From Nitrospirota bacterium (GTDB lineage: Bacteria > Nitrospirota > Thermodesulfovibrionia > Thermodesulfovibrionales > JdFR-86): 64,000 nt of DNA. Numbering within the stretch: the first letter of the stretch is position 1; the number at the start of each line of letters is the position of its first letter. Below are positions 12,969 through 50,359 of the stretch, piece after piece. The notes beneath the pieces are model-generated. The model was given only the letters and a program-made list of their open reading frames with translations, had not been told where the DNA came from and searched no databases. The DNA lies in the NCBI GenBank assembly GCA_963721805.1, contig CAVRJY010000002.1, forward strand, positions 384,001-448,000. Direction: 5' to 3'. Both the position numbers and the translations under genes were made by a program.

Positions 12969-13058
12969 GTTTGTAACTCTTATCAAAGATTTTGACCGCT
13001 CGCACGATTATGCGGAGGAAACTTAAAGCGCGAGAAATCGTGTCAGACAAGGCAGGGC

Positions 13059-14153
13059 CGCGGATTGTAATGTGAAGTGCAACACCTGTGAAAGAAAAAG
13101 CCCATCGTCATCCTGTTCTGTTAGAGTCAAGTACCAACCAGACGAAACAGAGAGGGAGGGACGATGGGCTACAGTCATTTTAGCATTGATGAGCGGGAGG
13201 GCATCGCAAGGATGCGTTATGCGGGGGTGAGCATACGTGAGATCGGGCGCCAGCTTGGCCGCTCGCCATCGAGCGTGAGCCGGGAGCTGCGGCGCAACAC
13301 GAAGAAGTCTTTCTATGGCGCGCACGCCGCAACCGTGCTCTATGTCCGCCGAAGGCATTTTGCGAGCAGACGCCTGAAGCGCTGGCCGGACGGCCTGATC
13401 GGCTATGCGATGGCGGGACTTTGCAGGCGTTGGTCGCCGGAGCAGGTGTCGGGCCGCCTTAAGCTTGACCATCCACATAGCACAGAGATGCGGATATCCT
13501 TTGCCACGCTATACAGATGGATACGGCAGGACAGGGCGATGGGGGGCTCGATGCATCGCATGCTGAGGCGTAAGGGAAGGAGCTACAGAAAAGCCCGGGG
13601 GCCTGAGACCAGGGGCCGGTTCAATGGGGCGTTGAGCATCAGGCAGCGCCCCGAGATCGTGGTCCGGAAGGGACGCTTCGGGGATTGGGAGGCGGATACC
13701 GTCTACGGGTTCGACGGGAAAACGTGCATCGCAACGTTTAACGAGCGCAAGAGCCTCTACCTTATATCGAGGAAGATGCCGAGGCCCGGCTCGGAGGCGT
13801 TGAGGGAGGCCGCCGTATCGGCGCTGGGAGGCCTGCGGCAGGGCATGCGTATGACCATGACCGTGGACAGGGGCAGCGAGTTTGCATGCTACAGGGACTT
13901 AAAATACATGATGGGGATCGACGTATACTTCGCCGACCCCTATTGCTCATGGCAGCGCGGCCAGAACGAAAACCTCAACGGGCTGCTGCGGCAGTACTTT
14001 CCGAAGGGGATCGACTTCAACACAGTAACGCAGGAGCAGCTGGATCGCGTCGTTGATGAGATTAACAACAGACCAAGAAAAACGCTGGACTACAGGGCAC
14101 CCGCCGAGGTTGCGGCAAATGCGCGCCTGTTGCACTTGGCTTGACAATCCACT
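13059..14153 (+). mobile_element. IS30-family insertion sequence, 1095 bp
   Basis: 26-bp imperfect terminal IRs (CGCGGATTGTAATGTGAAGTGCAACA / TGTTGCACTTGGCTTGACAATCCACT); 2-bp GC target duplication at 13057-58 and 14154-55. Confidence 0.93.
13164..14144 (+). CDS. IS30-family DDE transposase
   Basis: HTH IGRQLGRSPSSVSRELRRN, WSPEQV, GDWEADT, TVDRGSEF, WQRGQNENLNGLLRQYFPKG. Confidence 0.97.
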   Translation: MGYSHFSIDEREGIARMRYAGVSIREIGRQLGRSPSSVSRELRRNTKKSFYGAHAATVLYVRRRHFASRRLKRWPDGLIGYAMAGLCRRWSPEQVSGRLKLDHPHSTEMRISFATLYRWIRQDRAMGGSMHRMLRRKGRSYRKARGPETRGRFNGALSIRQRPEIVVRKGRFGDWEADTVYGFDGKTCIATFNERKSLYLISRKMPRPGSEALREAAVSALGGLRQGMRMTMTVDRGSEFACYRDLKYMMGIDVYFADPYCSWQRGQNENLNGLLRQYFPKGIDFNTVTQEQLDRVVDEINNRPRKTLDYRAPAEVAANARLLHLA

Positions 14154-14268
14154 GCGAGAAGACCGCCCGACGGTGTACTGAGATGTACTCCGAGGGCGTG
14201 TCTTTGAAGCACTGACGCAGTATCACGCGCATTTCGCACGCTTTGAAAAAGGATACCGCAACCGCACG

Positions 14269-15921
14269 CTAAATTTTGAATCCTTCCATGGTGGTTTTTA
14301 AGGTGTGGGCCGTCGTTGAAAGCTCCGACGCCGACTGCGCTATCTGCACCGTGCCTGACGACACCTCGCGCGACGAATCCGCTATGCTCGATACGTCGGT
14401 GCCTATCGTCCCGGCGACCGAGGACATCTCCTCGGTGGCCGAGGCTATCTGCTGCACGAGCCCCTGCAGGTCGCTGATGCTCGATACGATATGCTTAAGC
14501 TGCTGTCCGGCCTTTATCGACAGCTCTACGCCCGTGTCGACCTTCGTGATAGCGCCCTTCATCGAGCCGACCGACTCGTCGACCTCGCGCTGGATCGAGG
14601 CGATCATGCCGCCGATCTCCGAGGTCGCGCGCGCGGTGCGCTCGGCGAGCTTCCTTACCTCGTCCGCGACGACCGCGAAGCCGCGGCCCTGCTCCCCCGC
14701 GCGCGCTGCCTCGATGGCCGCGTTTAATGCCAGCAGGTTCGTCTGGTCTGCGATGTCGTTGATGACCTTGACGATCTCGCCGATCTGCTTCGAGCGCTCG
14801 TGCAGCGAGCCGATCACCTTCGAGGTGCCGCTTACGGCGGTCGCGATCTCCCTTATCTCTTTGACCGAGGCCTCGACTATGTGGTCGCCCTCCCGGGCCT
14901 GGTTGACGGTATTTTCGGCGCTCTCGGCGATGCCCGATGCGTTGTGCGCCACGTCCATCACGGTCTGCGTGAGCTGCTCGGCGGCGGTCGCTATCTGCTG
15001 TGAGCGCCCGGACTGGTCGTGCGACGTCGCGGATATCTCCTCGGAGCTGGAGCTGAGCTGGGTGCTGGCCGAGGCCATGGTATCGGAGGCTGACTTGATC
15101 TGGCCGAGCACGCCCCTGAGCTTCCCGGTCATATGCATCATCGCGCGCACGAGCTGGCTGATCTCGTCAGTGCCGGTAGAGTCGATCCTCACGGTGAGGT
15201 TGCCCTCCGCTATCAGCTCGGCGGCGGCTACGCTGGCGTGCAGGGGCTTCACTATGCCGCGCGTGAGCACCGCTGCCGTGACGATAGCGATTATTATTAT
15301 CAGCGCCGCCATCACGCCCAGGGCTACGAGCGACCTGCGGTAGCTTGCCTGCGCGTTATTGAAGCCCAGGTCGCTCATCTCTCGCTCGAAGTCCGAGAGG
15401 CCCTGCAGGGTGTCGATGAGATCGCCCACGGCCGGAGCGGCCTCGTCGTTTAAGAGCGCGGCGGCCTCCCTGGTGTTGCCGGAGCGGCAGAGCTCGATCA
15501 CCTGGTTGTTGAGCGGCCCGGCCTTGAGCTGCTCTTCCCTGACCTTCGCGATAATGGCCTCGGCCCTGCTTTTCGCCCCTGCCAGAGACTTGTCGTTCGA
15601 GACAAGCCCGAGGGCCTCGAGCTTATCGAAATTCTTGTTGTATACGGCCCGCCGGGCCGCTATCCTCTGGATGCCGGCCTCGACGCCGGCGGGATCGGGA
15701 TTCAGCACGAGGTCGCGGATCATCACCGCGACGTCCCTGATCACCGAGGTCATCTCGGTGACCGCCCGGACCCGGTCGTTGTTCACCGTTACGATGGCGT
15801 CGAGGTCTTTGTGGATACTGCGAATCCCATGGACTCCCACCGCTATGAGCGCGAACATAAGCACAACGAGCAGCGCGAATCCAGCGCTGAGCCTATAGCC
15901 GATCTTCATCCGTTGCAGCAT
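14269..15921 (-). CDS. Methyl-accepting chemotaxis protein (4HB sensor, HAMP)
   Basis: [38 protein letters not shown]; two TMs; ATG 15921 chosen as start. Confidence 0.95.
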
Positions 15922-15955
15922 CGTGCCCCCCCGGCCGCTGTCATTAGTTAACTGT

Positions 15956-15984
15956 ATGTTAGAGCGCAGAACGTTGGATGTCAA
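15956..15984 (-). promoter_or_regulatory. Putative sigma-70 promoter of the MCP gene
   Basis: Minus-strand TTGACA-17 bp-TAACAT. Confidence 0.55.
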
Positions 15985-16127
15985 TAGATTGTTCGGAAGC
16001 GGGCGGCCGCACCCTCTCCCCCCCCGCTCCGAATCAGTGCATTCGGCCGCTTAGGGCTATCCATGAGCCGTGCGCTCCCGGGGGCGTTGCTTATTTATGT
16101 TATAACGGGCTTATTTCACGCGCGCAT

Positions 16128-17270
16128 ATGATAGAATTATCGATGTTTTCAGGCGGGCTCAGGAGGCTGAAAGACGCGGGACTGCTGCGGACGCTCACGG
16201 AGCGGGCCTCGGCGCAGGGGCCGCACATAACCGCAGGCGGACGCGAGCTCATAAACTTCGCATCCAACGACTACCTTGGCCTCGCCTCGGACCCGAGGCT
16301 CATCGATGCAGCATGCAGGGCGGCCGAGCGCTATGGCTTCGGCGCGGGGGCATCGAGGCTGCTTGGCGGCGGCACACCCGCGCACGCACAGTGCGAGCGC
16401 CGCGCCGCGCGGCTTAAGGGCTCGGAGGCCGCGCTGCTGTTCGGCTCGGGCTACGAGGCCAACACCGGAGCGATACCGGCCCTCGCGGCCGGCGAGATAT
16501 TCAGCGACGAGCTCAATCACGCGAGCATCATCGACGGCTGCCGCCTCGCGCGTGGCCGCACGCATATCTACCGCCACCGTGACATGGGACACCTGGCCGA
16601 GCTGCTGTCCTCATCTGGCGCAGCCAGAAAGCTCGTAGTGACCGATACGGTCTTCAGCATGAGCGGCGAGATCGCGCCTGTACGGGAACTCTGCGCGCTA
16701 TGCGAGCTGCATGGCGCGGTGCTGTATCTGGACGACGCGCACGCAACCGGGGTGCTCGGCGCCGGGGCGCTCGCCCACTTCGGGCTGCGCGCCCAAGACT
16801 GGGTCGTGCAGATGTCGACCTGCTCCAAGGCCCTCGGCGGGCAGGGTGCGTTCGTCGCTGCATCGGCTGATACCGTAAGCTGGCTGGTAAACTCGGCCCG
16901 CAGCTTCATCTACTCGACAGCGCCATCGCCCGCGGCGGCGGCAGCGGCACTGGCCGCGATAGAAATTTTAATGTCTGCCGAGGGCGAGCGCCTGATGGAA
17001 AGGCTCCATGACAACCGCGGTGCGCTGACAGACAAGCTGCAACGGGCTGGCATAAGCGCCGCCTCAGCCGGGACGCCGATAATACCGGTCTTCATAGGAG
17101 GCATCGAGCGGACAGTGGCTGCAGCCGCGGCCCTTATGGAGCGCGGGATATACGCCCCCGCGATCCGGCCCCCGACCGTTGCCGCGCCGATGATACGCCT
17201 GACCGTCACCGCGGCGCACTCCTCCGGGGATATCGATACCCTCGTCCGCGCGCTGGGCGAGACTCTATAG
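16128..17270 (+). CDS. bioF: 8-amino-7-oxononanoate synthase
   Basis: FASNDYLGL, GASRL, DELNHASIIDG, DDAH, TCSKALG, AIRPPTV; start 16128 or 16143. Confidence 0.9.
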   Translation: MIELSMFSGGLRRLKDAGLLRTLTERASAQGPHITAGGRELINFASNDYLGLASDPRLIDAACRAAERYGFGAGASRLLGGGTPAHAQCERRAARLKGSEAALLFGSGYEANTGAIPALAAGEIFSDELNHASIIDGCRLARGRTHIYRHRDMGHLAELLSSSGAARKLVVTDTVFSMSGEIAPVRELCALCELHGAVLYLDDAHATGVLGAGALAHFGLRAQDWVVQMSTCSKALGGQGAFVAASADTVSWLVNSARSFIYSTAPSPAAAAAALAAIEILMSAEGERLMERLHDNRGALTDKLQRAGISAASAGTPIIPVFIGGIERTVAAAAALMERGIYAPAIRPPTVAAPMIRLTVTAAHSSGDIDTLVRALGETL

Positions 17271-17480
17271 CGCCGCGAGCCTGGCTTCGACCTCTGCGAT
17301 CTCGGCCCTGAGGTCCGAGAGCGTCTCTTCGTCGGTCGCGACCTGCCCGGCGTTTATGTGCGCCCTCGTGTGCGTGAAGTTAAACTCAATCGTCTCCTGG
17401 ATGTCCTCGAGGTCGAGCCTCAGCCTCCTGAGCGCCTCCTCGAGCCCCGCCCTGTCCATCGACGCGTAATCCCTGGCCAT
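17265..17480 (-). CDS. Small hypothetical protein, coiled-coil-like
   Basis: 71 aa, GGAGGG RBS, host-like codon usage. Confidence 0.6.
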   Translation of the reverse strand: MARDYASMDRAGLEEALRRLRLDLEDIQETIEFNFTHTRAHINAGQVATDEETLSDLRAEIAEVEARLAAL

Positions 17481-17611
17481 CGAGCCCTCCGTGAAATCGT
17501 TGTTTTCTAATTATAGCTCAAACAATCCGGGTGCCTTTGTCCCTGTTTTTTGTTAATATAACTAACCATATGTATTACGCCTTAAAAACCATAAACAGCA
17601 AGTAAGGGGAA

Positions 17612-19045
17612 ATGGGCAGGAAACTCTTCATACTGGCCGCACTCGTGGCCGTGGGCGTCATGCTCGGGTTCGCGGCCGTGCGGTATAAAGACTACGTGCT
17701 GCCACTGCTGGGCATGCACGCCAAGGATACCGCTGCGCTGGCGGTCAGGGAGCCCTCCGCGGCCGTCAACCCGCTTCGCGGCGGGTCTGACTTCGCCTCG
17801 CTCGTCCAATCTATCTCCCCCTCCGTGGTCTCGATTTCGGCCAGCGGGGGCGGGACGGACTACTCCAGGGGCGCAACGTACGAGGAACTCGGCGCTGGCA
17901 TCATAGTCTCGGCCGAGGGCCATGTCGCGACGAGCGCGCACCTCGTCTCGGGGGCCGAGAGCATTACGGTAACGCTCGGCGACCGGCGGTCGTTCAGCGC
18001 CCGCGTGGTCGGGCTCGACAGCCTGACCGACCTCGCGGTGGTCAGGATCGACGCCCCTGCCGGGCTTATGCGGCTTGCATGGGCGGACTCTGACCGGGCG
18101 CGCGCCGGGGATTTCGTGCTTGCGGTCGGCAACCCCTTCGGGCTCGAGCATTCCGTGACGCTCGGGATAGTGAGCGCGCGCGGACGGGCGAGGATAGGGC
18201 AGCTTGACGAGGAGTTCATCCAGACCGACGCGGCTATAAACCCGGGCAACTCCGGCGGCCCGCTGCTGGATAGCTCCGGCGCGGTCCTGGGCGTAGTGAC
18301 CGGGGCATACCCTCAGTCCGGCACGTATCCGGGCATAGGGTTCGCGGTGCCGTCCAATACCGCCCGGCCTGTGATCGAGGCGCTCATGCGCGACGGCCGC
18401 GTGCGGCGCGGCTGGATAGGGGCTGCGTCCGAGGACATGACGCCGGAGCTCGCGGCCGCCTTCGGGTATAAGGGTGACGATGCCGCGGGCGCGGTGCTCA
18501 CGGACGTGGCACCCGGCGGCCCGGCCGAGCGGGCGGGGCTTAAGCGCGGGGATATCATAATCGAGTTTGGAGGTCATAAGGTCGAGTCCTCATCCTCTTT
18601 GGGCGGGCTCGTTGCGCTGACGCCTCCGGGCGAGAAGCGGCAGGTAACGCTCTTCCGCTCTGGGCGCAAGTGGGGCACGGCTCTCGATGTGGCCGAATCG
18701 CCCGAGAGCACCGCAGCGGAGCACAGGGCACCGCCCCCATCCGCTAACGCCCCGACAGGGCCGTTCTGGGGCCTGGGGGCCTCGGCGCTCACCGAGGACA
18801 TCTCGCGGCAGCTCGGCCTCAGGTCGGCGGACCGGTACGGCGTCGTGGTCGCCTCCGTGGCCGAGGGCTCACCCGCCAGCCGCGCCGGGATCAGGCGCGG
18901 CGACGTGATCCAGAGCATCGGCGGACGCCGCATCAATACTCCTTCGGAGTTCAGCCGCGTGGCGGGCGGGCAGAGGGCGTCCTCGCTGGTGTTCGTCAAC
19001 AGGGGCTCCGCCGGGATGTTTTATGCGATCTTATCCGCCCGCTGA
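17612..19045 (+). CDS. HtrA/DegP/DegQ serine protease with two PDZ domains
   Basis: SAHLV, TDLAV, IQTDAAINPGNSGGPL; two PDZ-like repeats. Confidence 0.93.
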   Translation: MGRKLFILAALVAVGVMLGFAAVRYKDYVLPLLGMHAKDTAALAVREPSAAVNPLRGGSDFASLVQSISPSVVSISASGGGTDYSRGATYEELGAGIIVSAEGHVATSAHLVSGAESITVTLGDRRSFSARVVGLDSLTDLAVVRIDAPAGLMRLAWADSDRARAGDFVLAVGNPFGLEHSVTLGIVSARGRARIGQLDEEFIQTDAAINPGNSGGPLLDSSGAVLGVVTGAYPQSGTYPGIGFAVPSNTARPVIEALMRDGRVRRGWIGAASEDMTPELAAAFGYKGDDAAGAVLTDVAPGGPAERAGLKRGDIIIEFGGHKVESSSSLGGLVALTPPGEKRQVTLFRSGRKWGTALDVAESPESTAAEHRAPPPSANAPTGPFWGLGASALTEDISRQLGLRSADRYGVVVASVAEGSPASRAGIRRGDVIQSIGGRRINTPSEFSRVAGGQRASSLVFVNRGSAGMFYAILSAR

Positions 19046-19094
19046 CGGGCGGCGTTATCATATTTTTCATACATAGGAAAGGGGGGACGCAATC

Positions 19095-20096
19095 ATGCTG
19101 ATGGGATTTCGGATTTTGGTGCTTGCCGCGGCCGTCGTGGCCGGGCTTTACATGGGACGCAGGATGGACCAGCCCGCCGTGGGTGCGATGCTCGGGGGAC
19201 TGGCCGGGATACTCGCGATACTGTTTGAGTGGAGGCTCAAGAAACTCCCGCTGGGCTCGATAGTGGGCGGGGTGCTCGGGCTCGCAACAGGCGTCGGCAC
19301 CGCGGCGCTCTTCATGCTCCCGATCAAGGGGCTGCTCGGGATGGACGCGGCCGCTGTGTCGTTCCTGCTCGGGAGCCTGCTCGGTTACGGCGGGCTCCTG
19401 TTCGGCATAAGCAGGGGCGAGAGGCTGAGCTTCAACTCCATGCTCAGGCTGGCCAAGGGGCAGGGGCCGGAGCTGTACCTCAAGCTCCTCGACACGAGCG
19501 TGATCATCGACGGCCGCATAGCGGACGTCTGCGAGACCGGGTTTCTGGACGGCGTCTTCGTAGTGCCGCAGTTCATCCTGCACGAGCTTCAGTACGTGGC
19601 CGACTCCCCTGACCCGCAGAAGCGCTCGCGCGGCAGGCGCGGCCTCGACATCCTGCACCGCATCCAGAAGATGGCCCACATCACGGTGAAGATCGTCGAG
19701 GACGACTTCCCGAAGATCCGCGAGGTCGACGCCAAGCTCGTAGCGCTCGCCAAGACGCTCGACGCCAAGATCATCACGAACGACTTCAACCTCAACAAGG
19801 TCGCGGAGCTCCAGGGCGTCTCGGTGCTGAACGTCAACGAGCTCGCCAACTCGCTCAAGCCGGTCGTGCTCCCAGGCGAGGCCCTGCGCGTCTTCATCCT
19901 CAAGGAGGGCAAGGAGCAGAACCAGGGCGTGGCGTACCTCGAGGACGGCACCATGGTGGTCGTCGAAAACGGCAGGAAGCTGATCGGCAAGAACGTCGCG
20001 GTCGCGGTGACCAGCGTGCTCCAGACCACGGCCGGGCGCATGATCTTCACCAAGACGCGCGAGGACTACGACCGCGACGGCGGACAGCGCGAATGA
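19095..20096 (+). CDS. PIN/TRAM domain membrane protein, YacL-like
   Basis: LLDTSVIIDGRI, RGRRGLDIL, TNDFNLNKVA, YLEDGTMVVVE; upstream of ispD. Confidence 0.93.
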   Translation: MLMGFRILVLAAAVVAGLYMGRRMDQPAVGAMLGGLAGILAILFEWRLKKLPLGSIVGGVLGLATGVGTAALFMLPIKGLLGMDAAAVSFLLGSLLGYGGLLFGISRGERLSFNSMLRLAKGQGPELYLKLLDTSVIIDGRIADVCETGFLDGVFVVPQFILHELQYVADSPDPQKRSRGRRGLDILHRIQKMAHITVKIVEDDFPKIREVDAKLVALAKTLDAKIITNDFNLNKVAELQGVSVLNVNELANSLKPVVLPGEALRVFILKEGKEQNQGVAYLEDGTMVVVENGRKLIGKNVAVAVTSVLQTTAGRMIFTKTREDYDRDGGQRE

Positions 20097-20105
20097 GGGC
20101 TGCTG

Positions 20106-20840
20106 ATGCCTAACCGCAAGGTCATAGCCATTGTGCCTGCCGCCGGGCTCGGGCTCAGGTTCGGACGCACGCCGGGCAGGCATAAGTCCTCGCAATTCCC
20201 GGCCGCGAAGCAGTACGCGATGTTCGGCGGCAGGCCCCTGCTGCTGTGGGCGCTTGAGGTGCTCGAACGCTCGCCCCTGATCACCGAGATCGTGCCCGTG
20301 CTCCGAAGCGGCGACGAGCCGCTCGGGATGTCGCTCGCGCACGAGTACAAGATCAGGAAGGTCAGCCATATCGTCAGCGGCGGAGCGGAGCGGCAGGACT
20401 CGGTCCTGAATGCCCTGCGCGCCATCGAGGGCTTCATCGGAACGGTGCTCATACACGACGGCGTCCGGCCGTTTCTGACAAACGCGATCATCAAGCGCAC
20501 GCTCGAGGGCCTCAAGGGCGCTGACGGCTCGGTCGCCTCCGTCGCTCCGAAGGACACGATCAAGGAGGCGGACAGCGACGGCATCGCCGTAAGGACGCCC
20601 GCGCGCGACACGCTCAGGATCATACAGACCCCGCAGGTCTTCGGGTACGAGATCATCCGCGACGCGTACGAACGCGCAAAGCGCGAGCGCGTGCGCGCGA
20701 CGGACGACGCCACGCTCGTCGAGCGCATAGGCGGCCACGTGCGGCTCGTCGAGGGCGCATATACGAACCTGAAGGTCACGACGCGTGAGGACATGCTGAT
20801 CGCCGAGGCTCTCGTCGGGGAGGGGCTGTGGGCGACATAG
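20106..20840 (+). CDS. ispD: 2-C-methyl-D-erythritol 4-phosphate cytidylyltransferase
   Basis: PAAGLG, GGAERQDSV, IHDGVRP, QTPQ, TDDA, NLKVTT. Confidence 0.95.
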   Translation: MPNRKVIAIVPAAGLGLRFGRTPGRHKSSQFPAAKQYAMFGGRPLLLWALEVLERSPLITEIVPVLRSGDEPLGMSLAHEYKIRKVSHIVSGGAERQDSVLNALRAIEGFIGTVLIHDGVRPFLTNAIIKRTLEGLKGADGSVASVAPKDTIKEADSDGIAVRTPARDTLRIIQTPQVFGYEIIRDAYERAKRERVRATDDATLVERIGGHVRLVEGAYTNLKVTTREDMLIAEALVGEGLWAT

Positions 20841-21310
20841 GGCTGCGCGTCGGGATGGGCTATGACTCGCACAGGCTCGTCGAGGGACGGCCCCTGGTTC
20901 TCGGCGGCGTGACGGTCCCGTTCGACCGCGGCCCGCTCGGCCACTCCGACGGCGACGCGCTCGTCCACGCGGTCATCGACGCGATCCTCGGCGCGATGGG
21001 CGAGGGCGACATAGGCCGCATGTTCCCGGATACCGACCCGCAGTACAAGGGAATCGACAGCATGGCGCTTCTTGCTCGCACGACCGCGCTCGCGCGCGAG
21101 CGCGGCTGGGCGGTGCAGTGGGTTGACGCCACGGTCGTGATAGAGAGGCCCAGGCTCGCGCCATACATCGAGGCCATGCGCGAGAGGATCGCATCGGCGG
21201 GGATACTCGGGGTCAGCGTAAAGGCCAAATCGGACGAAGGGATGGGGTTTGTGGGGACCGGGGAGGGCATCGCCGCACACGCTGTGTGTCTCCTCACGCG
21301 GCTCAAGTAA
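20828..21310 (+). CDS. ispF: 2-C-methyl-D-erythritol 2,4-cyclodiphosphate synthase
   Basis: GMGYDSH, GHSDGD, GDIG.FPD. Confidence 0.95.
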   Translation: MGDIGLRVGMGYDSHRLVEGRPLVLGGVTVPFDRGPLGHSDGDALVHAVIDAILGAMGEGDIGRMFPDTDPQYKGIDSMALLARTTALARERGWAVQWVDATVVIERPRLAPYIEAMRERIASAGILGVSVKAKSDEGMGFVGTGEGIAAHAVCLLTRLK

Positions 21311-21311
21311 C

Positions 21312-21490
21312 CCTTTTTCAAAGCGCTCCAAATCGCTTGATACGTCGTTGGGCATCGAAGACTCGCCCTCTATGTACGCCCAAGTACACCATCGGGCGGT
21401 TTCCTCGACCTTCCTAGTCTGACGCGATTTATCGCGCTTTGCGAAGTGCGCGGCCCAGCCGCTGCCTCCGCGCCTCGTGGTCAACGGCAT
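21312..21490 (+). repeat. Palindromic intergenic repeat, copy C
   Basis: CCTTTTTC + core 21320-21440 + 38 nt + GGTCAACGGCAT. Confidence 0.9.
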
Positions 21491-21557
21491 GATCGGGATT
21501 CCGCCCATCGGCTTACTATAGTTACGCATACCGCGCGCGCGCCTTTTTTTTTATAGC

Positions 21558-21672
21558 GTTCGGATGTTTGAGGCAAAATCAAGGCTAACCCGACGAAAAA
21601 CAACGATTTGCTGACCGAAACCTCGTTCGGATGTTCGGATGTTTTTGGCCGAAACCCGGGCGATGTTCGAAT
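21558..21672. repeat. Cluster of GTTCGGAT direct repeats plus two CCGAAACC
   Basis: GTTCGGAT at 21558, 21625 and 21633; variant GTTCGAAT at 21665; CCGAAACC at 21615 and 21649. Confidence 0.7.
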
Positions 21673-21770
21673 CCAGTCTGATATTAGTTTAAGTGCGTAA
21701 ACTTTCCGGATCTCTAGGCCAGCTAAATATATCTCTATACACATCGTGCGCGATGATAAACCAACAGGGC

Positions 21771-21828
21771 GGAACTGCGCCATGGGAACTGGTTCCTAGG
21801 AACCGGTTCCATGGAACCAGTTCCTAGG
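21771..21828. repeat. 14-bp-period tandem array of the palindrome GGAACCGGTTCC; continues after IS481 to 23046
   Basis: Units at 21785, 21799 and 21813, a degenerate unit at 21771, and GGAGTCGGTTCC at 23035. Confidence 0.85.
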
Positions 21829-23028
21829 TGTAAAGGTTACGCTCTTACCGGACAGTATCAGGCTGGAAAAAGCAGGCGGCAGCCAGCCCTTCCATCGGTT
21901 AGAATGTTTCACCACAAAACACAGACCGAAGGAGGAAGGGCATGACTGCCAAAGAAAAGATATCACAAGGGAGGCTTTCAATGCTTCAGCTGGCCGAGAG
22001 GCTCAGGAACGTGTCGGAGGCCTGTCGCCGCCGGGGGGTGAGCCGCAGCCAGTTTTACGAGTACAAGCGGGCGTTTCAGGAGCAGGGGTTTGCGGGGCTC
22101 GCGGACCTTCCGCCGATAGCGCGTAGCTGTCCCCACAAGACGCCTGAGGAGGCCCGCAAGCGAGTGATCGAGATGAGCCTTGCTCACCCCCGGTGGGGGA
22201 AGCAGCGCATCTTCGAGCACCTGCTTCTGGAGGGCATATTGGTGCGTCCCTCAACTGTGTATCGCATCCAGGTTCGCGAGGGGCTGGAGTCGAAGGCCAA
22301 GCGCATCCTCCGGCTTGAGCAGGAGGCTAACGGCAAGGAGATCGAGCTAACGGAGGAGCAGGTCAAGCTCATCGAGCGGGCCAATCCGTGCTTCAGGGAA
22401 AGGCATGTGGAGAGCGCATATCCGGGCTATCTGCTCAGCCAGGACACCTTCACGGTGGGCAAGCTCAAGGGCATCGGGACCGTGTATCTGCAGGCCGTGG
22501 TGGACACGTACGGCTCTTATGCCTTCGGCAAGCTGTACACGTCGAAGAGGCCCGAGACGGCGGCCGACGTGCTCTACGACCGCGTGCTGCCGTTTTACGA
22601 GGACCATGGCATCAGGGTCCAGCATGTCCTGACGGACAACGGCTCGGAGTACTGCGGCAAGCTGCTGCGGCATCCGTACGAGCTGTTTCTGGCGCTTCAC
22701 GACATCGCGCATCGAAGGACGAAGGTGGCGACACCGAGGACAAACGGATTCGTGGAGCGGTTTAATCGCACCATCCTGGACGAGTTCTTCTCGGAGACGT
22801 TCAGGTACCGGTTCTACGCATCGCTCGATGAGCTGCAGTATGACCTCGACCGGTGGCTGCACCACTACAACAACGAGCGCCCTCACAAGGGCTATCGCAA
22901 CATGGGCAGACGGCCAATAGAAACTATCGAGCTGGGCAAAAAGCTAAGACAGAAAGCTGAGGAGGAGGCCGCCTGATCAGTGCGACCGATGAGATGGAAA
23001 ACTGTCCGGAGAGCACTGGACTTTTACA
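21829..23028 (+). mobile_element. IS481-family insertion sequence, 1200 bp
   Basis: TGT...ACA ends with ~28-bp imperfect IRs (TGTAAAGG...CCGGACAGT / ACTGTCCGG...TTTTACA); 8-bp duplication TTCCTAGG at 21821-28 and 23029-36. Confidence 0.92.
21942..22976 (+). CDS. IS481-family transposase
   Basis: NVSEACRRRGVSRSQFY HTH, LSQDT, LTDNGSEY, PRTNGFVERFNRT, YNNERPH. Confidence 0.95.
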   Translation: MTAKEKISQGRLSMLQLAERLRNVSEACRRRGVSRSQFYEYKRAFQEQGFAGLADLPPIARSCPHKTPEEARKRVIEMSLAHPRWGKQRIFEHLLLEGILVRPSTVYRIQVREGLESKAKRILRLEQEANGKEIELTEEQVKLIERANPCFRERHVESAYPGYLLSQDTFTVGKLKGIGTVYLQAVVDTYGSYAFGKLYTSKRPETAADVLYDRVLPFYEDHGIRVQHVLTDNGSEYCGKLLRHPYELFLALHDIAHRRTKVATPRTNGFVERFNRTILDEFFSETFRYRFYASLDELQYDLDRWLHHYNNERPHKGYRNMGRRPIETIELGKKLRQKAEEEAA

Positions 23029-23119
23029 TTCCTAGGAGTCGGTTCCGTTGATCTATGAAACCCAACAGCGGTGCGTGTTTAGCTTGCCAAGGGAGAGGGC
23101 AGGGGGCTATTTTAAATCA

Positions 23120-23284
23120 ATGCCGTTGACCGCTCGCACGATTATGCAGGTGCTACATTAAAGCGCGCCCAAATTGTCTTCAGACTAGGAACGGCGAGAA
23201 GACCGCCCGATGGTGTACTGGGATGTACATAGAGGGCGCGTCTTCGCAGCCGTGACGACGTATCAAGCGATTTGGCGCGGCTTT
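23120..23284 (-). repeat. Palindromic intergenic repeat, copy B
   Basis: Core 23160-23284 overlaps the nuoM stop codon; ATGCCGTTGACC at 23120-23131. Confidence 0.9.
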
Positions 23285-24791
23285 AGAAGATGGAGCTAAT
23301 AAAGGATTGCGCCAGATTCAGTTCCTGCGGGCGAATGTTGACGCGCGATAGCAGATGCTCCACGCTCGGGTGCAGGAACCCCAGGAACGCGTTTGGATAT
23401 ATGCCGATCCAGAATATCAGCACGATCATCGGCGCGAGCGTCAGGATCTCGCGGATGTCGATGTCCTTCAAGACCGAGACCTTGGGCGTCACCTCAAGGA
23501 AGAAGACCCTCTGATAGAGCCAGAGCATATAGCCCGCGCCGATGATGACGCCGGTCGCGGCGAACGCGCCGGCCATCTTCGAGGCCGTGAAACCGCCCAG
23601 CAGGATCAGGAACTCGCCTACGAACCCGTTCATGCTCGGAAGCCCGATCGAGGCCAGAGTGAAGATCAAAAACAGCGCTGAGAAGACCGGCATCACGGTG
23701 GCCGTCCCGCCGTAGTCCGCGATGCGGCGCGTATGCGTGCGCTCGTATATCGCCCCGACCGAGAGGAAGAGCCCGCCGGTCACGATGCCGTGGTTGACCA
23801 TCTGGAGGATGCCGCCCTCCATGCCCTGCGTGTTGAGCGAGAAAATACCTAGCGTCACGAACCCCATGTGGCTGACCGAGCTGTACGCGATCAGGCGTTT
23901 TAAGTCGGTCTGCGCGAGGCAGACGACCGCGCCGTAGATGATCGCTATAACCGAGAGCGTGAGCATCACAGGGGTCATGGCCACCGTGGCGGCCGGGAAG
24001 AGCGGGAGCGAGAAGCGCAGGAAGCCGTATGCGCCCATCTTGATCAGCACCGCCGCGAGTACGACGCTGCCCGCTGTAGGGGCCTCGGTATGCGCGTCGG
24101 GCAGCCAGGTGTGCACAGGGAACATCGGCACCTTCACGGCGAAGGCCGCGAAGAAGGCCCAGAAGAGCCAGAACTGGAGCTTGTAGGAATATGCGTGCTC
24201 GGCGAGCTCGCGTATGTCGAGCGTGTGGCTGACGCTATAGAGCGTGATAATGCCGACGAGCATCAGGACGCTTCCGACGAGCGTATAGAGGAAGAACTTG
24301 ATCGCGGCGTACACGCGGTTCGGCCCGCCCCAGACGCCGATAAGGAGGAACATCGGGATCAGCATCGCCTCCCAGAAGATGTAGAACAGGAAGAGGTCCA
24401 TTGCGCAGAACACGCCGATCATCGCGCCTTCGAGGATGAGGAGCGCCATGTAGAACTCCTTGACCTTCTTCGTGATCGCGTTCCATGAGATCGTGATGCA
24501 GAGGATCGTGACGAGCGTCGAGAGCAGGACGAACAGCACGCTTATGCCGTCCACTCCGAGCGAGTAGCGGACGTTGAAGGCATCTATCCAGGGCGCGGAC
24601 TCCTGAAACTGCATCGCGAACGTCGTGGTGTCAAACGAGCTAAACAGCGGCAGCGAGAGCAGGAACGTTATGAAGCTCAGCGTGAGCGCCGAGTATTTGA
24701 TCGCGGCCTCGTTGGAGCGCGGGATCATGCCTATGACCAGCCCGCCGACTATCGGCAGGAAGATCAGCGCGCTCAGTATCGGATAACCCAT
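23283..24791 (-). CDS. nuoM: NADH-quinone oxidoreductase subunit M
   Basis: FYIFWEAMLIP, AVKVPMFPVHTWLPDAHTEAP, KRLIAYSSVSHMG. Confidence 0.95.
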   Translation of the reverse strand: MGYPILSALIFLPIVGGLVIGMIPRSNEAAIKYSALTLSFITFLLSLPLFSSFDTTTFAMQFQESAPWIDAFNVRYSLGVDGISVLFVLLSTLVTILCITISWNAITKKVKEFYMALLILEGAMIGVFCAMDLFLFYIFWEAMLIPMFLLIGVWGGPNRVYAAIKFFLYTLVGSVLMLVGIITLYSVSHTLDIRELAEHAYSYKLQFWLFWAFFAAFAVKVPMFPVHTWLPDAHTEAPTAGSVVLAAVLIKMGAYGFLRFSLPLFPAATVAMTPVMLTLSVIAIIYGAVVCLAQTDLKRLIAYSSVSHMGFVTLGIFSLNTQGMEGGILQMVNHGIVTGGLFLSVGAIYERTHTRRIADYGGTATVMPVFSALFLIFTLASIGLPSMNGFVGEFLILLGGFTASKMAGAFAATGVIIGAGYMLWLYQRVFFLEVTPKVSVLKDIDIREILTLAPMIVLIFWIGIYPNAFLGFLHPSVEHLLSRVNIRPQELNLAQSFISSIF

Positions 24792-24801
24792 GTGTCCCCC
24801 T

Positions 24802-26727
24802 CTATTGCCAGAACAGCGCGATGGCGGCCGCGATCAGGAGCCCGACCGCCATGGCCGAGCCGTAGTGGTGCAGCACGCCGGTCTGCGCCTTGCGCAGCAC
24901 GCCGCTTAAGGCCCCAATGCCGCGCGGGACGCCGTTTACGATGCCCTCGATGATCCGGCCGTCCGTGACCCTGACGATCACGTTCTCGGCCACCCACATC
25001 GTGGGCCTGATGACCGTGAGGTCATAGAACTCGTCCACGTAGTACTTGTTCCAGAGCACGCGGTGCACCCCGCGGAAGTTCGCCAGCACGCGCTCCGGGA
25101 TCGAGGTGTCCCTCAGGTAGACGTAATACGCCCCGAAGATGCCGATCACCCCGCACATTATCGAGATGAACATGACCATCATCTCCTCGGCGTGCGTGCC
25201 GTGGGCCTCGGGCTCGCCGAGCACAGGGGCGAGGAACGCCGCGAACTTGTCAGCGTGCTCGCCGCCAAGGAGCGGCGAGATCCCGATCCAGCCTGCCGCT
25301 ACGGCCCCTACCGCCAGTATCGCAAGCGGGATGGTCATGTTCTTTGGGGACTCGTGCAGGTGGTGTTCCTGCTCGTGCGTCCCGCGGAACTTGCCGTGGA
25401 ACGTGAGGAAGAAGATCCTGAAGGAGTAAAATGCCGTAATGAGCGCGGTGATCGTGCCAAGCACCCAGACGAACTTGCCTACCGCGCCTCCGTTGTATGC
25501 CTGCCAGAGTATCTCGTCCTTGCTGAAGAACCCGGCGAACCCCGGCACCCCGGAGATGCTCAGCGAGGCCAGCAGGAACGTCCAGTAGGTCCAGGGCATG
25601 TACTTCCTGAGCCCGCCCATCTTCTGGATGTCGAGCACCCCGCCCATCGCGTGCATGACGCTGCCGGCCCCCAAAAACAGGAGGGCCTTGAAGAACGCGT
25701 GCGTGTAAAGGTGGAATATCCCCGCCGCATACGCCCCGACGCCGCAGGCCACGAACATGTAGCCGAGCTGGCTTATCGTCGAGTACGCGATGACGCGCTT
25801 GATGTCGTTTTGGACGAGCGCGATGGTGGCCGCAAAGAGCGATGTCACCGCCCCTGTGATCGCGACGACCATGAGCGCCTTTTCGGACAGCCCGAAGATC
25901 GGGTTACACCGCGCGATCATAAACACGCCGGCCGTGACCATCGTAGCGGCGTGGATCAGGGCGCTGACCGGGGTGGGGCCTTCCATGGCGTCCGGCAGCC
26001 AGACGTGCAGCGGAATCTGCGCGGACTTGCCGATCGCGCCGCAGAACAGCAGCAGCGCGATTACGGTGATGAGGTCATAATCCGTCCCGAATATGTTGAT
26101 CGTGTGGCCGACGAGGTTCTTGACCCCTATGAAGGCCGGGGCGTAGTGTATCGTGCCTACTGAGAGGAACAGGAGCATGATGCCGAGCCCGAAGCCGAAG
26201 TCGCCGAAGCGGTTGACGATGAAGGCCTTCTTGCCCGCGTCAGAGGCCGATTTCTTTTCGTAGTAATACCCGATCAGGAAGTACGAGCAGAGGCCGACGG
26301 CCTCCCAGCCGAAGTAGAGCTGCAGGAAGTTGTTGGCCATCACGAGCATGAGCATCGAGAAGGTAAACAGGCTGAGATATGCGAAGAACCTGTAGTAGCC
26401 CTCCTCGCCGTGCATGTACCCGATGGAGTAGATGTGCACGAGGCTCGATACCGTCGTGACTACGATGAGCATCACGCACGTCAGCGGGTCTACGAGGAAC
26501 CCGACCGTCGCCCTGAACCCCCCTGAGTTGATCCACTCAAAGAGGTCGACGTTATAGGTGTGGCCGTTTATGACGCTTAGGAGCGTGGCCAGCGAGATCA
26601 GCCACGAGGCCACGACGGCCGGGACTGCCACCAGATGGGCGTTGTGGCCGATGTAGCGCTTGCCGAAGAGGATGTTAATGGCGAAGGCCAGAAGCGGTAT
26701 AAACGGTATCAGGATGAATGCGTTCAT
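24802..26727 (-). CDS. nuoL: NADH-quinone oxidoreductase subunit L
   Basis: GKSAQIPLHVWLPDAMEGPTPVSALIHAATMV. Confidence 0.97.
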   Translation of the reverse strand: MNAFILIPFIPLLAFAINILFGKRYIGHNAHLVAVPAVVASWLISLATLLSVINGHTYNVDLFEWINSGGFRATVGFLVDPLTCVMLIVVTTVSSLVHIYSIGYMHGEEGYYRFFAYLSLFTFSMLMLVMANNFLQLYFGWEAVGLCSYFLIGYYYEKKSASDAGKKAFIVNRFGDFGFGLGIMLLFLSVGTIHYAPAFIGVKNLVGHTINIFGTDYDLITVIALLLFCGAIGKSAQIPLHVWLPDAMEGPTPVSALIHAATMVTAGVFMIARCNPIFGLSEKALMVVAITGAVTSLFAATIALVQNDIKRVIAYSTISQLGYMFVACGVGAYAAGIFHLYTHAFFKALLFLGAGSVMHAMGGVLDIQKMGGLRKYMPWTYWTFLLASLSISGVPGFAGFFSKDEILWQAYNGGAVGKFVWVLGTITALITAFYSFRIFFLTFHGKFRGTHEQEHHLHESPKNMTIPLAILAVGAVAAGWIGISPLLGGEHADKFAAFLAPVLGEPEAHGTHAEEMMVMFISIMCGVIGIFGAYYVYLRDTSIPERVLANFRGVHRVLWNKYYVDEFYDLTVIRPTMWVAENVIVRVTDGRIIEGIVNGVPRGIGALSGVLRKAQTGVLHHYGSAMAVGLLIAAAIALFWQ

Positions 26728-47127: not shown

Positions 47128-47136
47128 CATCATACC

Positions 47137-47242: not shown

Positions 47243-47254
47243 TTATGTCCAGGC

Positions 47255-47743: not shown

Positions 47744-47977
47744 ACATGAAATGGAGGGCGCTCGTTGAAGGCATGACAGTGGCGGTTCATCCGTTCGTCC
47801 GAGGCCGCGAGGGCCATGAGCGAATAGTATGGCTAATCTTGATGCACAAAAAGGAGGAAGCACCATGAAAGGGATCAAGGGATCGTCGACGGGGTTGATC
47901 CCCGTCGGAAAGCGCGCCGAGGCGGGCGCGGGCAGCACGGCGGGACAGGCCCCGGCGCATAATCGGACGGGAAGGTA

Positions 47978-48223
47978 ATGGCCATGGCAAAGAAAAAGCC
48001 GTACGTGCAGGTAGCATTCTGGGGGGCGATCTCGATAGCCATGTTCGCCGCCATGTATGTCTACGAGACCGATATCACCACCACCTTCAGCAAGGGCGGC
48101 TGGTACGCATTCCTGCCGATAGCGACCGCGTTCGCGTTCTCGTTCGTGCACGGCAACTTCACCGGCAAGTTCTGGAGCGTCGTCGGCATCGAGGCCTCCA
48201 ACAAGATCAAGGGAGGTAAATAA
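47978..48223 (+). CDS. Small two-TM membrane protein upstream of the TauE gene
   Basis: PIATAFAFSFVHGNFTGKFWSVVGIEA; RBS present. Confidence 0.75.
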   Translation: MAMAKKKPYVQVAFWGAISIAMFAAMYVYETDITTTFSKGGWYAFLPIATAFAFSFVHGNFTGKFWSVVGIEASNKIKGGK

Positions 48224-48225
48224 CC

Positions 48226-49309
48226 ATGCACGACATCGCAAGCAGCGTGGCCAATTTCATCGACCTCAATTCGATGAACATCATATACCTGTTCCTGGTC
48301 GGGTTCGTGGGCGGCCTCGTCAGCGGGTTCATAGGCTCCGGCGGCGCGTTCGTCCTCACCCCCGGCATGATGAGCCTCGGCGTGCCCGGGCTCGTCGCGG
48401 TCGCAAGCAACATGTGCCACAAGTTCCCCAAGGCGCTGGTGGGGTCGATGAAGCGGGCCAAGTACGGGCAGGTCGACGTCAAGCTCGGCGTCGTGCTCGG
48501 CATATCGGCCGAGGCCGGCGTGCTCTACGGAGCGCAAATTCAGGAAAACATCAAGGCCCGGTTCGGCGATGCGGGATCGAACCTCTACGTCAGCGCGGCC
48601 TTCGTAGTGATCCTCGCGGTCGTAGGAGGCTTCGTGCTCTATGACGCCTGGAAGACCCACCAAAGCGGCGCCACGCAACGAGGAAGAGAAGGTCTGCAAG
48701 CTCGCCAAATGGGTGCAGTCCATCAACATCCCCGGCACGATGGTCTATTTCAAGGCCATCAACGCCCGCGTGTCGATCCTCTTTACGATCCCGCTGGGGT
48801 TCGCAACCGGCATGCTCGCGGCCACTATCGCAGTGGGCGGCTTCATCGGAGTGCCTGCGATGATCTACGTCCTTGGCGCGCCGAGCCTCATAGCCTCGGC
48901 CACCGAACTCGTGATAGCGTTCGTCATGGGCGTGGGCGGCTCGTTTAAGTACGCGATGCACGGCCTCGTCGACATCAGGCTCGCGATGATCATCCTCGGC
49001 GGCTCGCTCTTCGGCATCCAGCTCGGGGCGATGGGCACCACGTACGTCAAGCCCTTCATGGTCAAGGTCGTCATGGGTGTCATCATGGTAGTCGTGCTCT
49101 TCAGCCGCGGCCTGATGGTCCCGGTCTATATGGCCCAGCTCGGCATGATCGATAAGATCGAGGACCACACGGTCAAGGTGCTCAGCTCCACGAGCTTCGC
49201 TATCATGATCTTTGCGCTGATGGTCGGGGCGGGCATCATCCTCAAGGCGATGTACGTGGGCCGCAGGGCCGAGCGCCTGAGCGCCATTGCCCAGGATGAG
49301 CGCGTATAA
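48226..49309 (+). pseudogene. TauE/SafE (sulfite exporter family) membrane protein, +1 frameshift near 48676
   Basis: GFVGGLVSGFIGSGGAFVLTP first half; AVGGFIGVPAMIY second half in the next frame. Confidence 0.85.
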
Positions 49310-50151
49310 GAAACTCCTGGTCGCGTTCGACGGCTCCGGATCGAGCCGTAACGCGCTGGTCCAGGCCTTCTCGCTCGCGCAGCGGGAGAAGGCCTGGATC
49401 AAGGTCCTGGCCGTAGTGCCCTCGTACGACGGCGACATAGACCTAAGCGGCGTAGGCGACATCGAGGCCGTGCTCAAGGGCCCCGGCGAGAAGCTTGTAG
49501 CCGAGGCCCGCCGGATGGCGGACGAGGCGAGGGTTAACGTCCTGACCGGCGTCGGGCAGGGCGAGGTCTACGAGAAGATCGTCGAGGTGGCCGGGGACGA
49601 GCGCTGCGGCCTGATCGTGATGGGCCGGCGCGGCCACCACGATATCGGCCGGATGGTGATCGGCAGCGTAACCGCCAGAGTTATCGCCCACAGCACAATG
49701 GACGTCCTCGTCTTCCCTCTTGGCACCGGGCTCGGATGGGGCCGCATCCTGCTTGCGACCGACGGCTCGGAATGCAGCCTCGCCGCGGCACAGAGGGCCA
49801 TAGCCTTTTGCGCGGCTTACGGCTCCGCGCTCTCGGCCGTCTCTGTCGTCCACGCGCCCGTCGAGATGTACGCCGAGGCCCCGAAGCTCGTCGAGCGCAT
49901 GATCGAGAAGTCCCGCTCTATCCTCGACGGCATAGCTGCCCTGGCCGGGAGGTCCGGCGTAAAGATCGAGACGCACGTCAGGGAGGGAGAGCCGGACGAG
50001 GAGGTTATCAAGCTTGCGACGGAGCTTGAGGCCGAGATGATCGTGATGGGGAGCCATGGGAGGACGGGCATCAAAAAAGTAATCATGGGGTCGGTCACCG
50101 AAAAGGTGATCGCGGAAGCCGTACTGCCCGGTATTGGTCGCAAAAGCCTAA
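49296..50151 (+). CDS. Tandem universal stress protein; probable +1 frameshift near 50121
   Basis: Two USP domains (LVAFDGS, IVMGRRG, GSVT; LATDGS, IVMGSHG, GSVT); canonical end CPVLVAKA* is in the +1 frame. Confidence 0.88.
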
Positions 50152-50179
50152 TCTTATCCAACGCATAGCTGCTATCCCA

Positions 50180-50359
50180 CCTTTATTCAAAACGCTCCAA
50201 ATCGCTTGATACTGCGTTGGGCATCAAAGACTCGCCCTCTATGTACGCCCAAGTACACCATCGGGCGGTCTTCTCGCCCTGCCTTGTCTGAAGACGATTT
50301 GGGCGCGCTTTCGGGGGGCACGGACGAAGGACGCCCCCCGCGCCCCCAAGGTCAACGGC
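50180..50359 (+). repeat. Palindromic intergenic repeat, copy D
   Basis: CCTTTATTC + core 50189-50311 + 38 nt + GGTCAACGGC. Confidence 0.9.

Follow-up and report, generated by a model that had tools for sequence, protein, structure and literature searches.

The Correia elements of Neisseria, also known as NEMIS, are imperfect palindromes of 100-180 nt that possess terminal inverted repeats (TIRs) and TA flanks, are present in tens to hundreds of copies, and lie in transcribed intergenic DNA, where they fold as RNA hairpins; to our knowledge no cognate transposase has been assigned to them. The 127-bp enterobacterial repeats (ERIC, or IRU) are likewise imperfect palindromes that are intergenic, transcribed and similar to MITEs (miniature inverted-repeat transposable elements), and in Yersinia they reportedly exert orientation-dependent effects on neighbouring mRNA. 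Repeats of this kind may also be targets, and insertion sequences (ISs) of the IS1397/ISKpn1 type insert into repeat loops. In two further sources, the repeats RU-1, RU-2 and RU-3 are called 'small mobile sequences' (PMC2759123), and the REPs are described as palindromes of 20-40 nt that are tagged GTAG or CGTC, are linked to a RAYT gene, and lie mostly downstream of open reading frames (ORFs), between unidirectional and convergent genes (PMC3733652). According to the latter, the REP terminus often provides a TAG stop, and REPs are IS targets, are found in mosaic clusters and are thought to form RNA hairpins. Here we describe a repeat element, abbreviated E, that was first noticed in 64,000 nt of DNA from a Nitrospirota bacterium (GenBank CAVRJY010000002.1, here contig C2, positions 384001-448000; this whole stretch is called the window). 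We place at roughly 0.7 the probability that E is a non-autonomous MITE, belonging to a structured family that extends across several genera of the order and that multiplied sharply in this genome, where its form is derived and asymmetric.

E resembles the Correia elements in that it is a long imperfect palindrome with a high copy number and in that its relatives in other genera have TIRs and TA flanks, a likeness that is drawn from described features and not from a comparison of sequences. It differs from them because the form in the source genome is asymmetric, having lost the outer left arm and gained a variable hairpin and a conserved right box, and because E stands next to stop codons and shows a strong co-orientation with the gene upstream. 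With ERIC it shares the form of a ~125-nt imperfect palindrome that is intergenic and MITE-like. However, E belongs to another lineage and has another sequence, its copy number in the source genome is ten-fold above that of its relatives, and the polarity toward low-GC DNA described below was not found described for ERIC in the literature searched. Compared with the REPs and BIMEs as described in PMC3733652, E is alike in lying downstream of ORFs, in its association with TAG stops, in being an IS target and in forming clusters with other motifs. It is unlike them in that its rod is 125 nt long, that it has neither a fixed tag nor a RAYT, and that its relatives carry TIRs together with apparent flanking duplications; the suggestion of a REP-like element, which was contained in the original prediction, was for the first three of these reasons set aside. 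Finally, as with IS1397 and ISKpn1, an IS is found at one exact position and orientation within the repeat, although both the IS family (IS30-like) and the repeat are different ones. The E family is probably a previously uncatalogued, Correia/ERIC-like MITE family. Searches of the literature for repeats at the borders of islets or of defence cargo, and for REPs close to termination codons, yielded no matching description, which does not establish that the family is unpublished.

An abundant element with a rod, a variable spacer and a conserved box

The original prediction spoke of a four-copy repeat, and all four cores are found in the window at the positions that it gave. The number four, however, is an effect of the window. 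In the assembly of the source genome (G000; 2.78 Mb in 9 contigs with 58-62% GC per contig, 94% complete), blastn gave 207 matches with copy D of the window and 218 with copy B, while nhmmer, with a profile built from 99 long copies, found 234 matches of ~125-190 nt. These add up to 36,163 bp or 1.30% of the genome, are present on six of the nine contigs, the four largest included (C1 134, C2 36, C4 31, C5 27, C6 3 and C9 3), and are divided between the plus (126) and minus (108) strands. Iteration of the profile recovered just 9 loci more.

Read from 5' to 3', E consists of a leader of 8-12 nt, a rod of 125 nt whose ends are inverted repeats, a spacer of 27-50 nt and a conserved box. In the main subfamily the leader is pyrimidine-rich in 80 of 118 copies and purine-rich in 23. 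The spacers fall into at least five unrelated types, several of which are hairpins; type T1 was found in 56 copies, T4 in 37, T2 in 21, T3 in 10 and T5 in 10, whereas 25 copies have other spacers and in 36 no box was found. The box is made up of GGTCAACGGC and ~10 nt more, and the conservation beyond GGC reads roughly WTTGATTAGA (131 tail-bearing copies of 141 tail matches). Both a variable segment and a GGTCAA(CGGC) tail had been predicted and both are real, but the last copy in the window ends near 50369 and not at 50359 as had been proposed.

The identity of a rod to its nearest neighbour ranges from 79 to 99.2%, with a median of 96% (189 of 194 rods, those with a neighbour aligned over at least 100 nt). 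No two rods are identical, whereas IS copies in this genome reach 100% identity. When near-identical pairs are compared, homology begins sharply at AAAGCGC and stops at or just past GGTCAACGGC, with the leader differing; the copied unit is E alone. Some rods that are 99% identical carry unrelated spacers, and one near-identical pair shares more than 480 nt, including the downstream modules X1 and X2 that are described below. One reading frame is open through the E consensus, as judged by eye; nevertheless 211 of the 225 copies that retain the 5' end are intergenic. The other 14 overlap a predicted ORF by more than 30 nt, for example at C4:172685-172959, C4:189260-189538 and C5:16541-16672. A possible mini-ORF, which opens with an NTG start immediately ahead of the head and reaches a TGA stop after six more codons, was seen in 63 of 218 copies.

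The four window copies illustrate this anatomy. Copy A lies on the minus strand and is interrupted by an IS30-like insertion of 1097 bp (13059-14155). Its 5' part (14156-14253) comprises a short, pyrimidine-rich leader at 14245-14253 and the first ~89 nt of the rod, and its 3' part (12977-13058) carries the remaining ~34 nt of rod sequence, followed by a spacer of type T4 and by the 3' box, a variant of GGTCAA...TTGAT at 12977-12997. A sense-oriented hairpin with a T-run lies beyond this box at ~12940-12965, and the TAG stop of an MCP gene (14269-15984, minus strand) is found 24 nt before the AAAGCG head. Copy B (21311-21498, plus strand) has its leader at 21311-21319, its rod at 21320-21444, a T3-type spacer, and a box with GGTCAACGGC at 21479-21488; here the TAA stop of ispF (YgbB; 20828-21310) is 9 nt before the head. 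In copy C (23111-23292, minus strand) the rod at 23160-23284 is followed by a T4-type spacer and by a box that appears as the reverse complement of GGTCAACGGC at 23122-23131, and the rod head is overlapped by the TAA stop of a NuoM-like Proton_antipo_M gene (23283-24791, minus strand). An overlap with the nuoM stop had been predicted and is real, but it belongs to this third copy (23160-23284) and not to the one called copy B. Copy D (50180-50369, plus strand) contains a leader at 50180-50188, a rod at 50189-50313, a T1-type spacer that forms a G6/C6 hairpin, and a box with GGTCAACGGC at 50350-50359 plus ~10 nt; the TAG stop of an ORF at 49287-50168 lies 21 nt before its head. All four copies are thus located 0-24 nt 3' of the stop codon of a co-oriented gene.

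As RNA, copy D folds into a long bulged rod and a second hairpin with an energy of -72.5 kcal/mol (z = -3.0; 0 of 200 shuffles were as good). The corresponding values for DNA are -36.6 kcal/mol and z = -2.4, with 4 of 200 shuffles as good. E matches no described RNA family: a search of Rfam 15 gave no gathering-score match anywhere in the window, and for nine diverse copies and copy D it gave no match even with E-values of up to 1.

Covariation of the rod and relatives in other genera

In an alignment of 26 diverse copies from G000, RNAalifold predicts 25 pairs, and at 14 of these both-sided, and hence compensatory, changes are present. The proportion of paired cells in this alignment is 93.4%, compared with 83.7% after shuffling (0 of 500 shuffles reach the observed value) and with 30-49% when the partners are slid. 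The rod is therefore supported by covariation, as the original prediction had proposed from compensatory differences among the window copies. One of its examples needs amendment, since the CAAAT/ATTTG pairing is found in the third and fourth copies but copy B has ATTTA at that place. When RNAalifold was applied to all 194 rods it returned the apical stem only, because of misalignment. On the gene-sense strand the alignment of 26 copies contains 20 G.U cells and 8 A.C cells, an excess that points weakly to folding of the sense strand.

The rod structure also revealed relatives. BLAST-type searches found no match in 40 relatives nor, with copy D as the query, in 389 other genomes of the class, but a covariance model built from the 26-copy alignment demonstrated that for the E family as a whole these are false negatives. 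With this model, 60 other genomes were searched and only 50 candidates per genome were scored; full-length matches were obtained in 7 of the 60, all of the same order as G000, numbering at least 23 in G003, 17 in G002, 8 in G147, 4 in G006, 4 in G013, 3 in G012 and 2 in G024. Three of the genera represented belong to the same family as G000, and two to two other families. When 55 of these loci were fitted to the model, a procedure that by itself favours the structure, 87.5% of cells were paired against 77.4% after shuffling, both-sided changes occurred at 18 of the 25 pairs, and G.U pairs were nearly fixed at two positions (42 and 48 of 55 loci). That a structure-aware model detects the family in at least five other genera where BLAST failed means that sequence searches badly under-count repeats of this type.

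In the relatives the element is an end-to-end palindrome of ~178 nt (mostly 169-196) with TIRs, and an inverted terminal match of 12 nt with at most 2 mismatches is present at 51 of the 55 loci. A TIR word of the G002 type occurs 50 times in G002, 48 times in G147 and 33 times in G013, compared with 0-1 occurrences of a control word. Inspection by eye showed TA to the left of the TIR in 10 of 15 and to the right in 11 of 16 G002 copies, and identical 4-nt A/T-rich flanks in 7 of 17 G003 copies. A convincing co-oriented ORF was present at 19 of the 55 loci, and in 8 of these 19 the end of the stop codon falls 27-29 nt ahead of the rod head, precisely at the edge of the TIR.

These data bear on the classification of E. 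It is small, non-coding, dispersed and present in many copies, as is characteristic of MITEs, and TIRs are clear in the relatives, although in G000 the ends of the rod are inverted repeats but the outer left arm is represented by the loose leader only. The proposal that E is a non-autonomous element of the MITE type, which the original prediction listed among its options, agrees well with the high copy number, with the existence of subfamilies, with a neighbour identity that extends to 99.2%, and with the relatives in other genera that combine TIRs with apparent flanking duplications. We suggest the following scheme. The element would be moved by TA-targeted cut-and-paste, carried out by a transposase supplied in trans that is now missing, and in the relatives it would be placed in this way between TA dinucleotides or between 4-nt A/T-rich duplications. 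A stop codon, either TAA or the TAG that is composed of TA and the element's first G, may often have been the insertion site and would be restored by the duplication. Such targeting, together with the first G of the element, would account both for the adjacency to stop codons and for the enrichment of TAG that is described below, and the use of the TA of a stop as a target in the relatives would offer a simple mechanical reason for the existence of repeats behind stop codons. In the lineage of G000 the outer left arm would have been reduced to the loose, pyrimidine-rich leader of 8-12 nt, a variable hairpin would have been gained behind the rod, and the conserved box would have become the right end. 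Insertions would presumably survive where they are harmless, between the stop codon and the terminator, so that E would be transcribed as a 3'-untranslated region (3'-UTR) hairpin. The co-orientation would most likely be maintained by selection that acts on the RNA, since the sense strand forms a better fold than the antisense strand, in which the G.U pairs become C.A mismatches.

Position, orientation and flanking DNA in the source genome

It had been predicted that E is always found 3' of a co-oriented gene. This is true for four of four copies in the window, but of the 211 intergenic copies in the whole genome 143 come after a gene of the same orientation and the other 68 are turned toward a divergent one (binomial P = 2.6e-7). 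For the 143 co-oriented copies, the stop codon and the start of the profile match are a median of 8 nt apart (interquartile range 2-22 nt), and the 68 divergent-facing copies adjoin what look by eye like -35/-10 boxes of the divergent gene. Because the intergenic regions that bear E are long (median 554-635 nt, compared with 19-132 nt for those without E), the closeness to stop codons is not due to crowding. Convergent spacers are favoured: E is present in 56 of 328 of them, compared with 91 of the 1618 spacers between co-directional genes and 28 of the 325 between divergent ones (P = 1e-11). TAG is the stop codon of 59 of the 114 genes that adjoin E and of 754 of all 2280 genes (P = 5e-6), and a TA before the head is enriched at three positions (28, 29 and 26 of 218 copies, compared with 2-17 at 16 other positions). 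The left flank itself varies, with TTC in 61, TTG in 27, GTG in 15 and TTT in 15 of the 218 copies and others in the remainder. As a separate matter, the 33% of the 2280 genes predicted by our crude caller that end in TAG seems high for a bacterium, and this share may come in part from elements that supply TA and G.

Few of the co-oriented copies (8 of 101) have a terminator-like hairpin with a T-run between E and the stop codon that precedes it. In the 140 nt that follow the box, a terminator was found in the sense orientation in 47 of 159 copies, compared with 9 of 159 in the antisense orientation and 18 of 600 random windows. Since terminators are thus commoner after the box than before E, the element is predicted to be part of the 3' UTR, in agreement with the second option of the original prediction as far as placement is concerned. 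The two ends of E also differ in their surroundings, with a predicted gene less than 60 nt away from the 5' end in 117 of 150 copies and from the 3' end in 18 of 150. With ~235 copies in predicted 3' UTRs, this single genome makes possible a genome-wide test of the effects of MITE hairpins on mRNA ends.

It is possible, and we entertain this tentatively, that E is now mainly an RNA module of the 3' UTR that is used by the host, in other words a domesticated MITE whose rod hairpin tunes or stabilises the mRNA of the gene upstream, or shields core genes against transcription that emerges from the neighbouring AT-rich DNA. This idea overlaps with the MITE reading but implies that selection, and not a preference of insertion, keeps E at gene ends in one orientation. 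It is consistent with the placement between stop codon and terminator and with the unequal distances of the two ends from genes, as well as with a structure that is conserved across genera, changes in a compensatory manner and has nearly fixed G.U pairs on the sense strand, an excess of G.U over A.C cells being present in G000 also. The lack of identical E copies in a genome whose ISs are 100% identical would be understandable too, and the REPs, most of which are situated downstream of ORFs and which may function as RNA (PMC3733652), provide a precedent. On the other hand, the Rfam search was negative even at its most permissive, the 68 of 211 intergenic copies that face a divergent promoter are not behind a stop codon, and covariation is equally expected of a substrate for transposition. 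We retain the interpretation of E as a MITE.

A further asymmetry concerns the base composition of the neighbouring DNA. In the 400-nt flanks of E the GC content averages 0.50 on the 3' side, whereas that of the 5' side, at 0.60, is typical of the genome (Wilcoxon P = 3.5e-28 for 195 copies), and this polarity is present in both positional classes. The 3' flank is below 0.55 in 125 of 195 copies, compared with 5.9% of 2000 E-free gene ends, although the windows used in this comparison were not identically placed. A low-GC stretch with a median length of 700 nt lies downstream of 191 of 223 copies, and 91 of these stretches end at an inverted E, in 17 the next copy is direct and the remaining 83 are open. 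Viewed from the low-GC DNA, 88 of 254 segments have an outward-facing E (5' end out) at a boundary, 3 have only a wrongly oriented one and 163 have none; among segments of 1-3 kb, 36 of 58 have an outward-facing boundary E. We scanned 38 ORFs interior to low-GC DNA against Pfam, in sets of 20 and 18. Many are of a defence type, one is an IS200 transposase, at least two are core-like, and 18 have no Pfam match. They include a KAP NTPase, a TIR effector protein, PDC-S32 and PDC-S59 candidates, Abi_C and MmeI, and also an Mtase-Mrr fusion, PLD, HNH, HEPN and NTP_transf_2; PADLOC returned candidate matches for 4 of 19 interior ORFs. Statistically, the association of E with low-GC defence cassettes is real.

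One explanation of this link would be that E is tied to accessory DNA, either because inverted pairs are the long ends of cargo units or because E serves as homology arms or landing pads for low-GC cassettes, many of them of the defence type. The polarity, the boundary counts and the defence-type interior ORFs all speak in favour of this, as do the 99%-identical rods with unrelated spacers, which point to recombination between copies. We consider it unlikely nonetheless. Fifty inverted pairs are without flanking duplication (longest common substring 4.12, compared with 4.11 in controls), the same spacer type is found at the paired ends in 9 of 47 cases when 8.8 are expected, and apart from IS copies no pair interior recurs (repeats of at least 500 bp with at least 85% identity). 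Solitary 3' boxes, which might be att-like marks, are rare, and the direction of the first cargo ORF is random (22 same and 25 opposite in open stretches). Moreover, 163 of the 254 low-GC segments manage without E, 49 of 96 open stretches contain no low-GC ORF of at least 80 aa, the relatives are without polarity, and the polarity in G000 is in part a trivial consequence of the fact that E abuts a gene. In a more elaborate form of the same idea, which we regard as doubtful to a similar degree, the one-armed MITE would be a polar boundary element with its head against core genes, at a stop codon or a promoter, and its 3' box toward low-GC anti-phage cassettes, half of them bracketed by inverted copies, and the ~235 near-identical copies would be docking or homology sites for the gain, exchange and retention of cassettes. 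Were this so, the boundary E would be a transposase-free, genome-wide counterpart of the integron, with inverted arms that avoid deletion. Two specific versions were rejected, namely a composite transposon formed from inverted pairs, because there is no flanking duplication and the end types are unmatched, and an integration specific to the 3' box, given that boxes on their own are rare and that a relaxed pattern occurs at chance level (251 solo, ~180 expected).

The resemblance to an integron raises the question of whether E might be an attC-like site of an integron-type cassette system. At ~125 nt, as a bulged hairpin directly 3' of a co-oriented ORF, and in a genome with seven tyrosine recombinase genes and with defence genes in the neighbouring DNA, E has some of the appropriate features. 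However, the genes upstream are core genes (MCP, ispF, nuoM), the copies are scattered over six of the nine contigs with neighbours that are far more often inverted (91) than direct (17), the orientation of the cargo is random, and no GTTRRRY/RYYYAAC core pair was seen at the rod ends, no attC model having been searched. We find this possibility scarcely credible, and a MITE remains the better description of E.

Transposases, resident insertion sequences and associated modules

Several observations weigh against the MITE reading. In G000 neither a target-site duplication nor a clean left TIR was found, and the leader differs among copies whose rods are 99% identical; it may thus reflect a preferred target, or left-arm sequence that has escaped homogenisation, and not a part of the copied unit. 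Targeting of TA does not explain the orientation of E. In the relatives, an automated test for duplications found a 2-nt duplication at 3 of 51 loci when 3.0 were expected, with termini that were over-extended through the palindromic flank, and GC content shows no polarity (0.564 upstream and 0.557 downstream). The MITE reading does not account for the low-GC polarity of G000. The positional statistics depend on gene calls from a crude codon-bias caller made for this analysis. Lastly, no cognate transposase was found in the families searched, which did not include PF04986 (Y2) and others. DDE_3 (IS630-type) had no match in G000, G002, G003, G147 or G013, and G000 has no DDE_Tnp_1, IS110, TnpB or reverse transcriptase (RT). 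The ISs that reside in G000 (7 IS30-like, 10 IS481-like and 6 IS200-like copies) have ends unrelated to E. The original prediction was correct in stating that the window contains no cognate enzyme, and for the families searched the same holds for the whole assembly. Among the matches to the TIR word no plus and minus pair 1-3 kb apart on one contig was seen. The recombinases of G000 are 7 of the tyrosine and 1 of the serine type. A retroelement, considered in view of an A-rich tail on the opposite strand and 5'-truncated copies, was dropped since no RT was found.

The IS200-like element deserves separate mention because the original prediction had pointed to single-strand elements of the IS200/IS605 type and to cleavage at TCAA as in IS608. 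It is ~610 bp long, is present in six identical copies, encodes a 143-aa Y1 transposase (PF01797, E-value 6.5e-42), and has the same 20-nt hairpin near both ends; two copies are beside E. The Y1 genes are located at C1:42259-42687, 366595-367023, 1252007-1252435 and 1452155-1452583, and at C4:138501-138929 and 146466-146894. If E were a single-strand DNA element of the IS200/IS605 (PATE) or REP-RAYT type that is moved by a Y1 HUH transposase, these six identical genes could supply the enzyme, and the absence of a detectable duplication at E in G000 would be expected. GTAG stands directly before the leader in 11 of 103 copies, and REP-like hairpin arrays follow 28 of 170 box-bearing copies, which fit this idea as well. 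Yet the ends and the hairpin of the IS200-like element are unrelated to E, G000 has no second, RAYT-like Y1 gene, and the DNA to the left of E is not a constant 4- or 5-mer that could be the target. Furthermore, in most 50-kb bins the copies divide evenly between the plus and minus strands, revealing no replication-strand bias, and the TIRs of the relatives with their TA or 4-nt flanks are not made by the IS200/IS605 family. We conclude that this mode of transposition, and with it the TCAA interpretation, is very improbable, and we continue to treat E as a MITE.

The other two ISs have distinct relationships with E. The IS30-like IS is present in 7 full copies, six of which are 100% and one 99.9% identical. 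In 5 of the 7 it occupies one identical position in the rod, antiparallel to E, each time in a different E, whereas the two remaining copies are far from any E. The insertion point is ...GGTCTTCTC^GCCCTGCC..., and the sites other than the one in copy A are C2:367111-368207, C1:387255-388351, C1:649312-650408 and C1:759625-760721. The insertion in copy A (13059-14155, plus strand) contains an ORF at 13164-14144 with an HTH_38 domain, as in IS30-family transposases. Together, the low-GC link and this exact-site capture make E a candidate, though an unproven one, for an organiser of genome plasticity. Of the 10 copies of the IS481-like IS, nine are 100% identical and one is 99.9% identical. All of them lie 73-609 nt away from an E, and by eye they adjoin GGAACnnGTTCC-type palindromes, which belong to module X2. 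In the window an IS481-like copy (21830-23026, plus strand) with an ORF at 21942-22976 (HTH_32, rve, rve_3) lies within an X2 palindrome, with CCTAGG at both sides.

Modules X1 and X2 are present at 21499-21829 (plus strand), downstream of copy B. X1 accompanies ~25 E copies, shares their orientation, lies a fixed 22-28 nt beyond the box, and consists of a GC palindrome with a T-run, which is terminator-like, followed by TTCGGATGTT iteron-like repeats (window 21540-21670 and ~25 others). X2 consists of GGAACCGGTTCC-type palindromes. The arrays that follow the box in 28 of 170 box-bearing copies are made up of short GC hairpins with a conserved linker, the unit being a 7-bp GC hairpin of varying sequence and a conserved linker of ~12 nt that contains AGTGAG. 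Examples are found from C1:382889 onward and at C1:495323 and C1:52784, with an E-free version at C1:836820, and the small REP-like hairpin is present in T5-type spacers too. Partial E copies occur in tandem at C1:456390-456631, where there are three 5' fragments with a period of ~83 nt, and at C1:1057250-1057320, where there are two fragments that consist of the rod end, spacer and box.

Several small contigs repeat, over their whole length, parts of C1 at 85% identity or more (C3 and C1:1327954-1347918; C7 and C8 and C1:798234-807494; C6 and C9 and parts of C1), which may reflect redundancy of the assembly or recent large duplications. A scan of a genome collection with a pattern of 14 specified bases gave chance matches in unrelated taxa. 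Metagenome and viral scans with a head pattern of 23 specified bases gave 0 matches, and in two DNA metagenome runs, in which short contigs covered parts of the window, no contig join across E or an IS indicated excision. A second freshwater-sediment metagenome contains contigs that are ~85-90% identical to the genes of window 11500-25500, together with E-like pieces that are without the IS30 insertion, and a related organism that carries the E family therefore probably exists.

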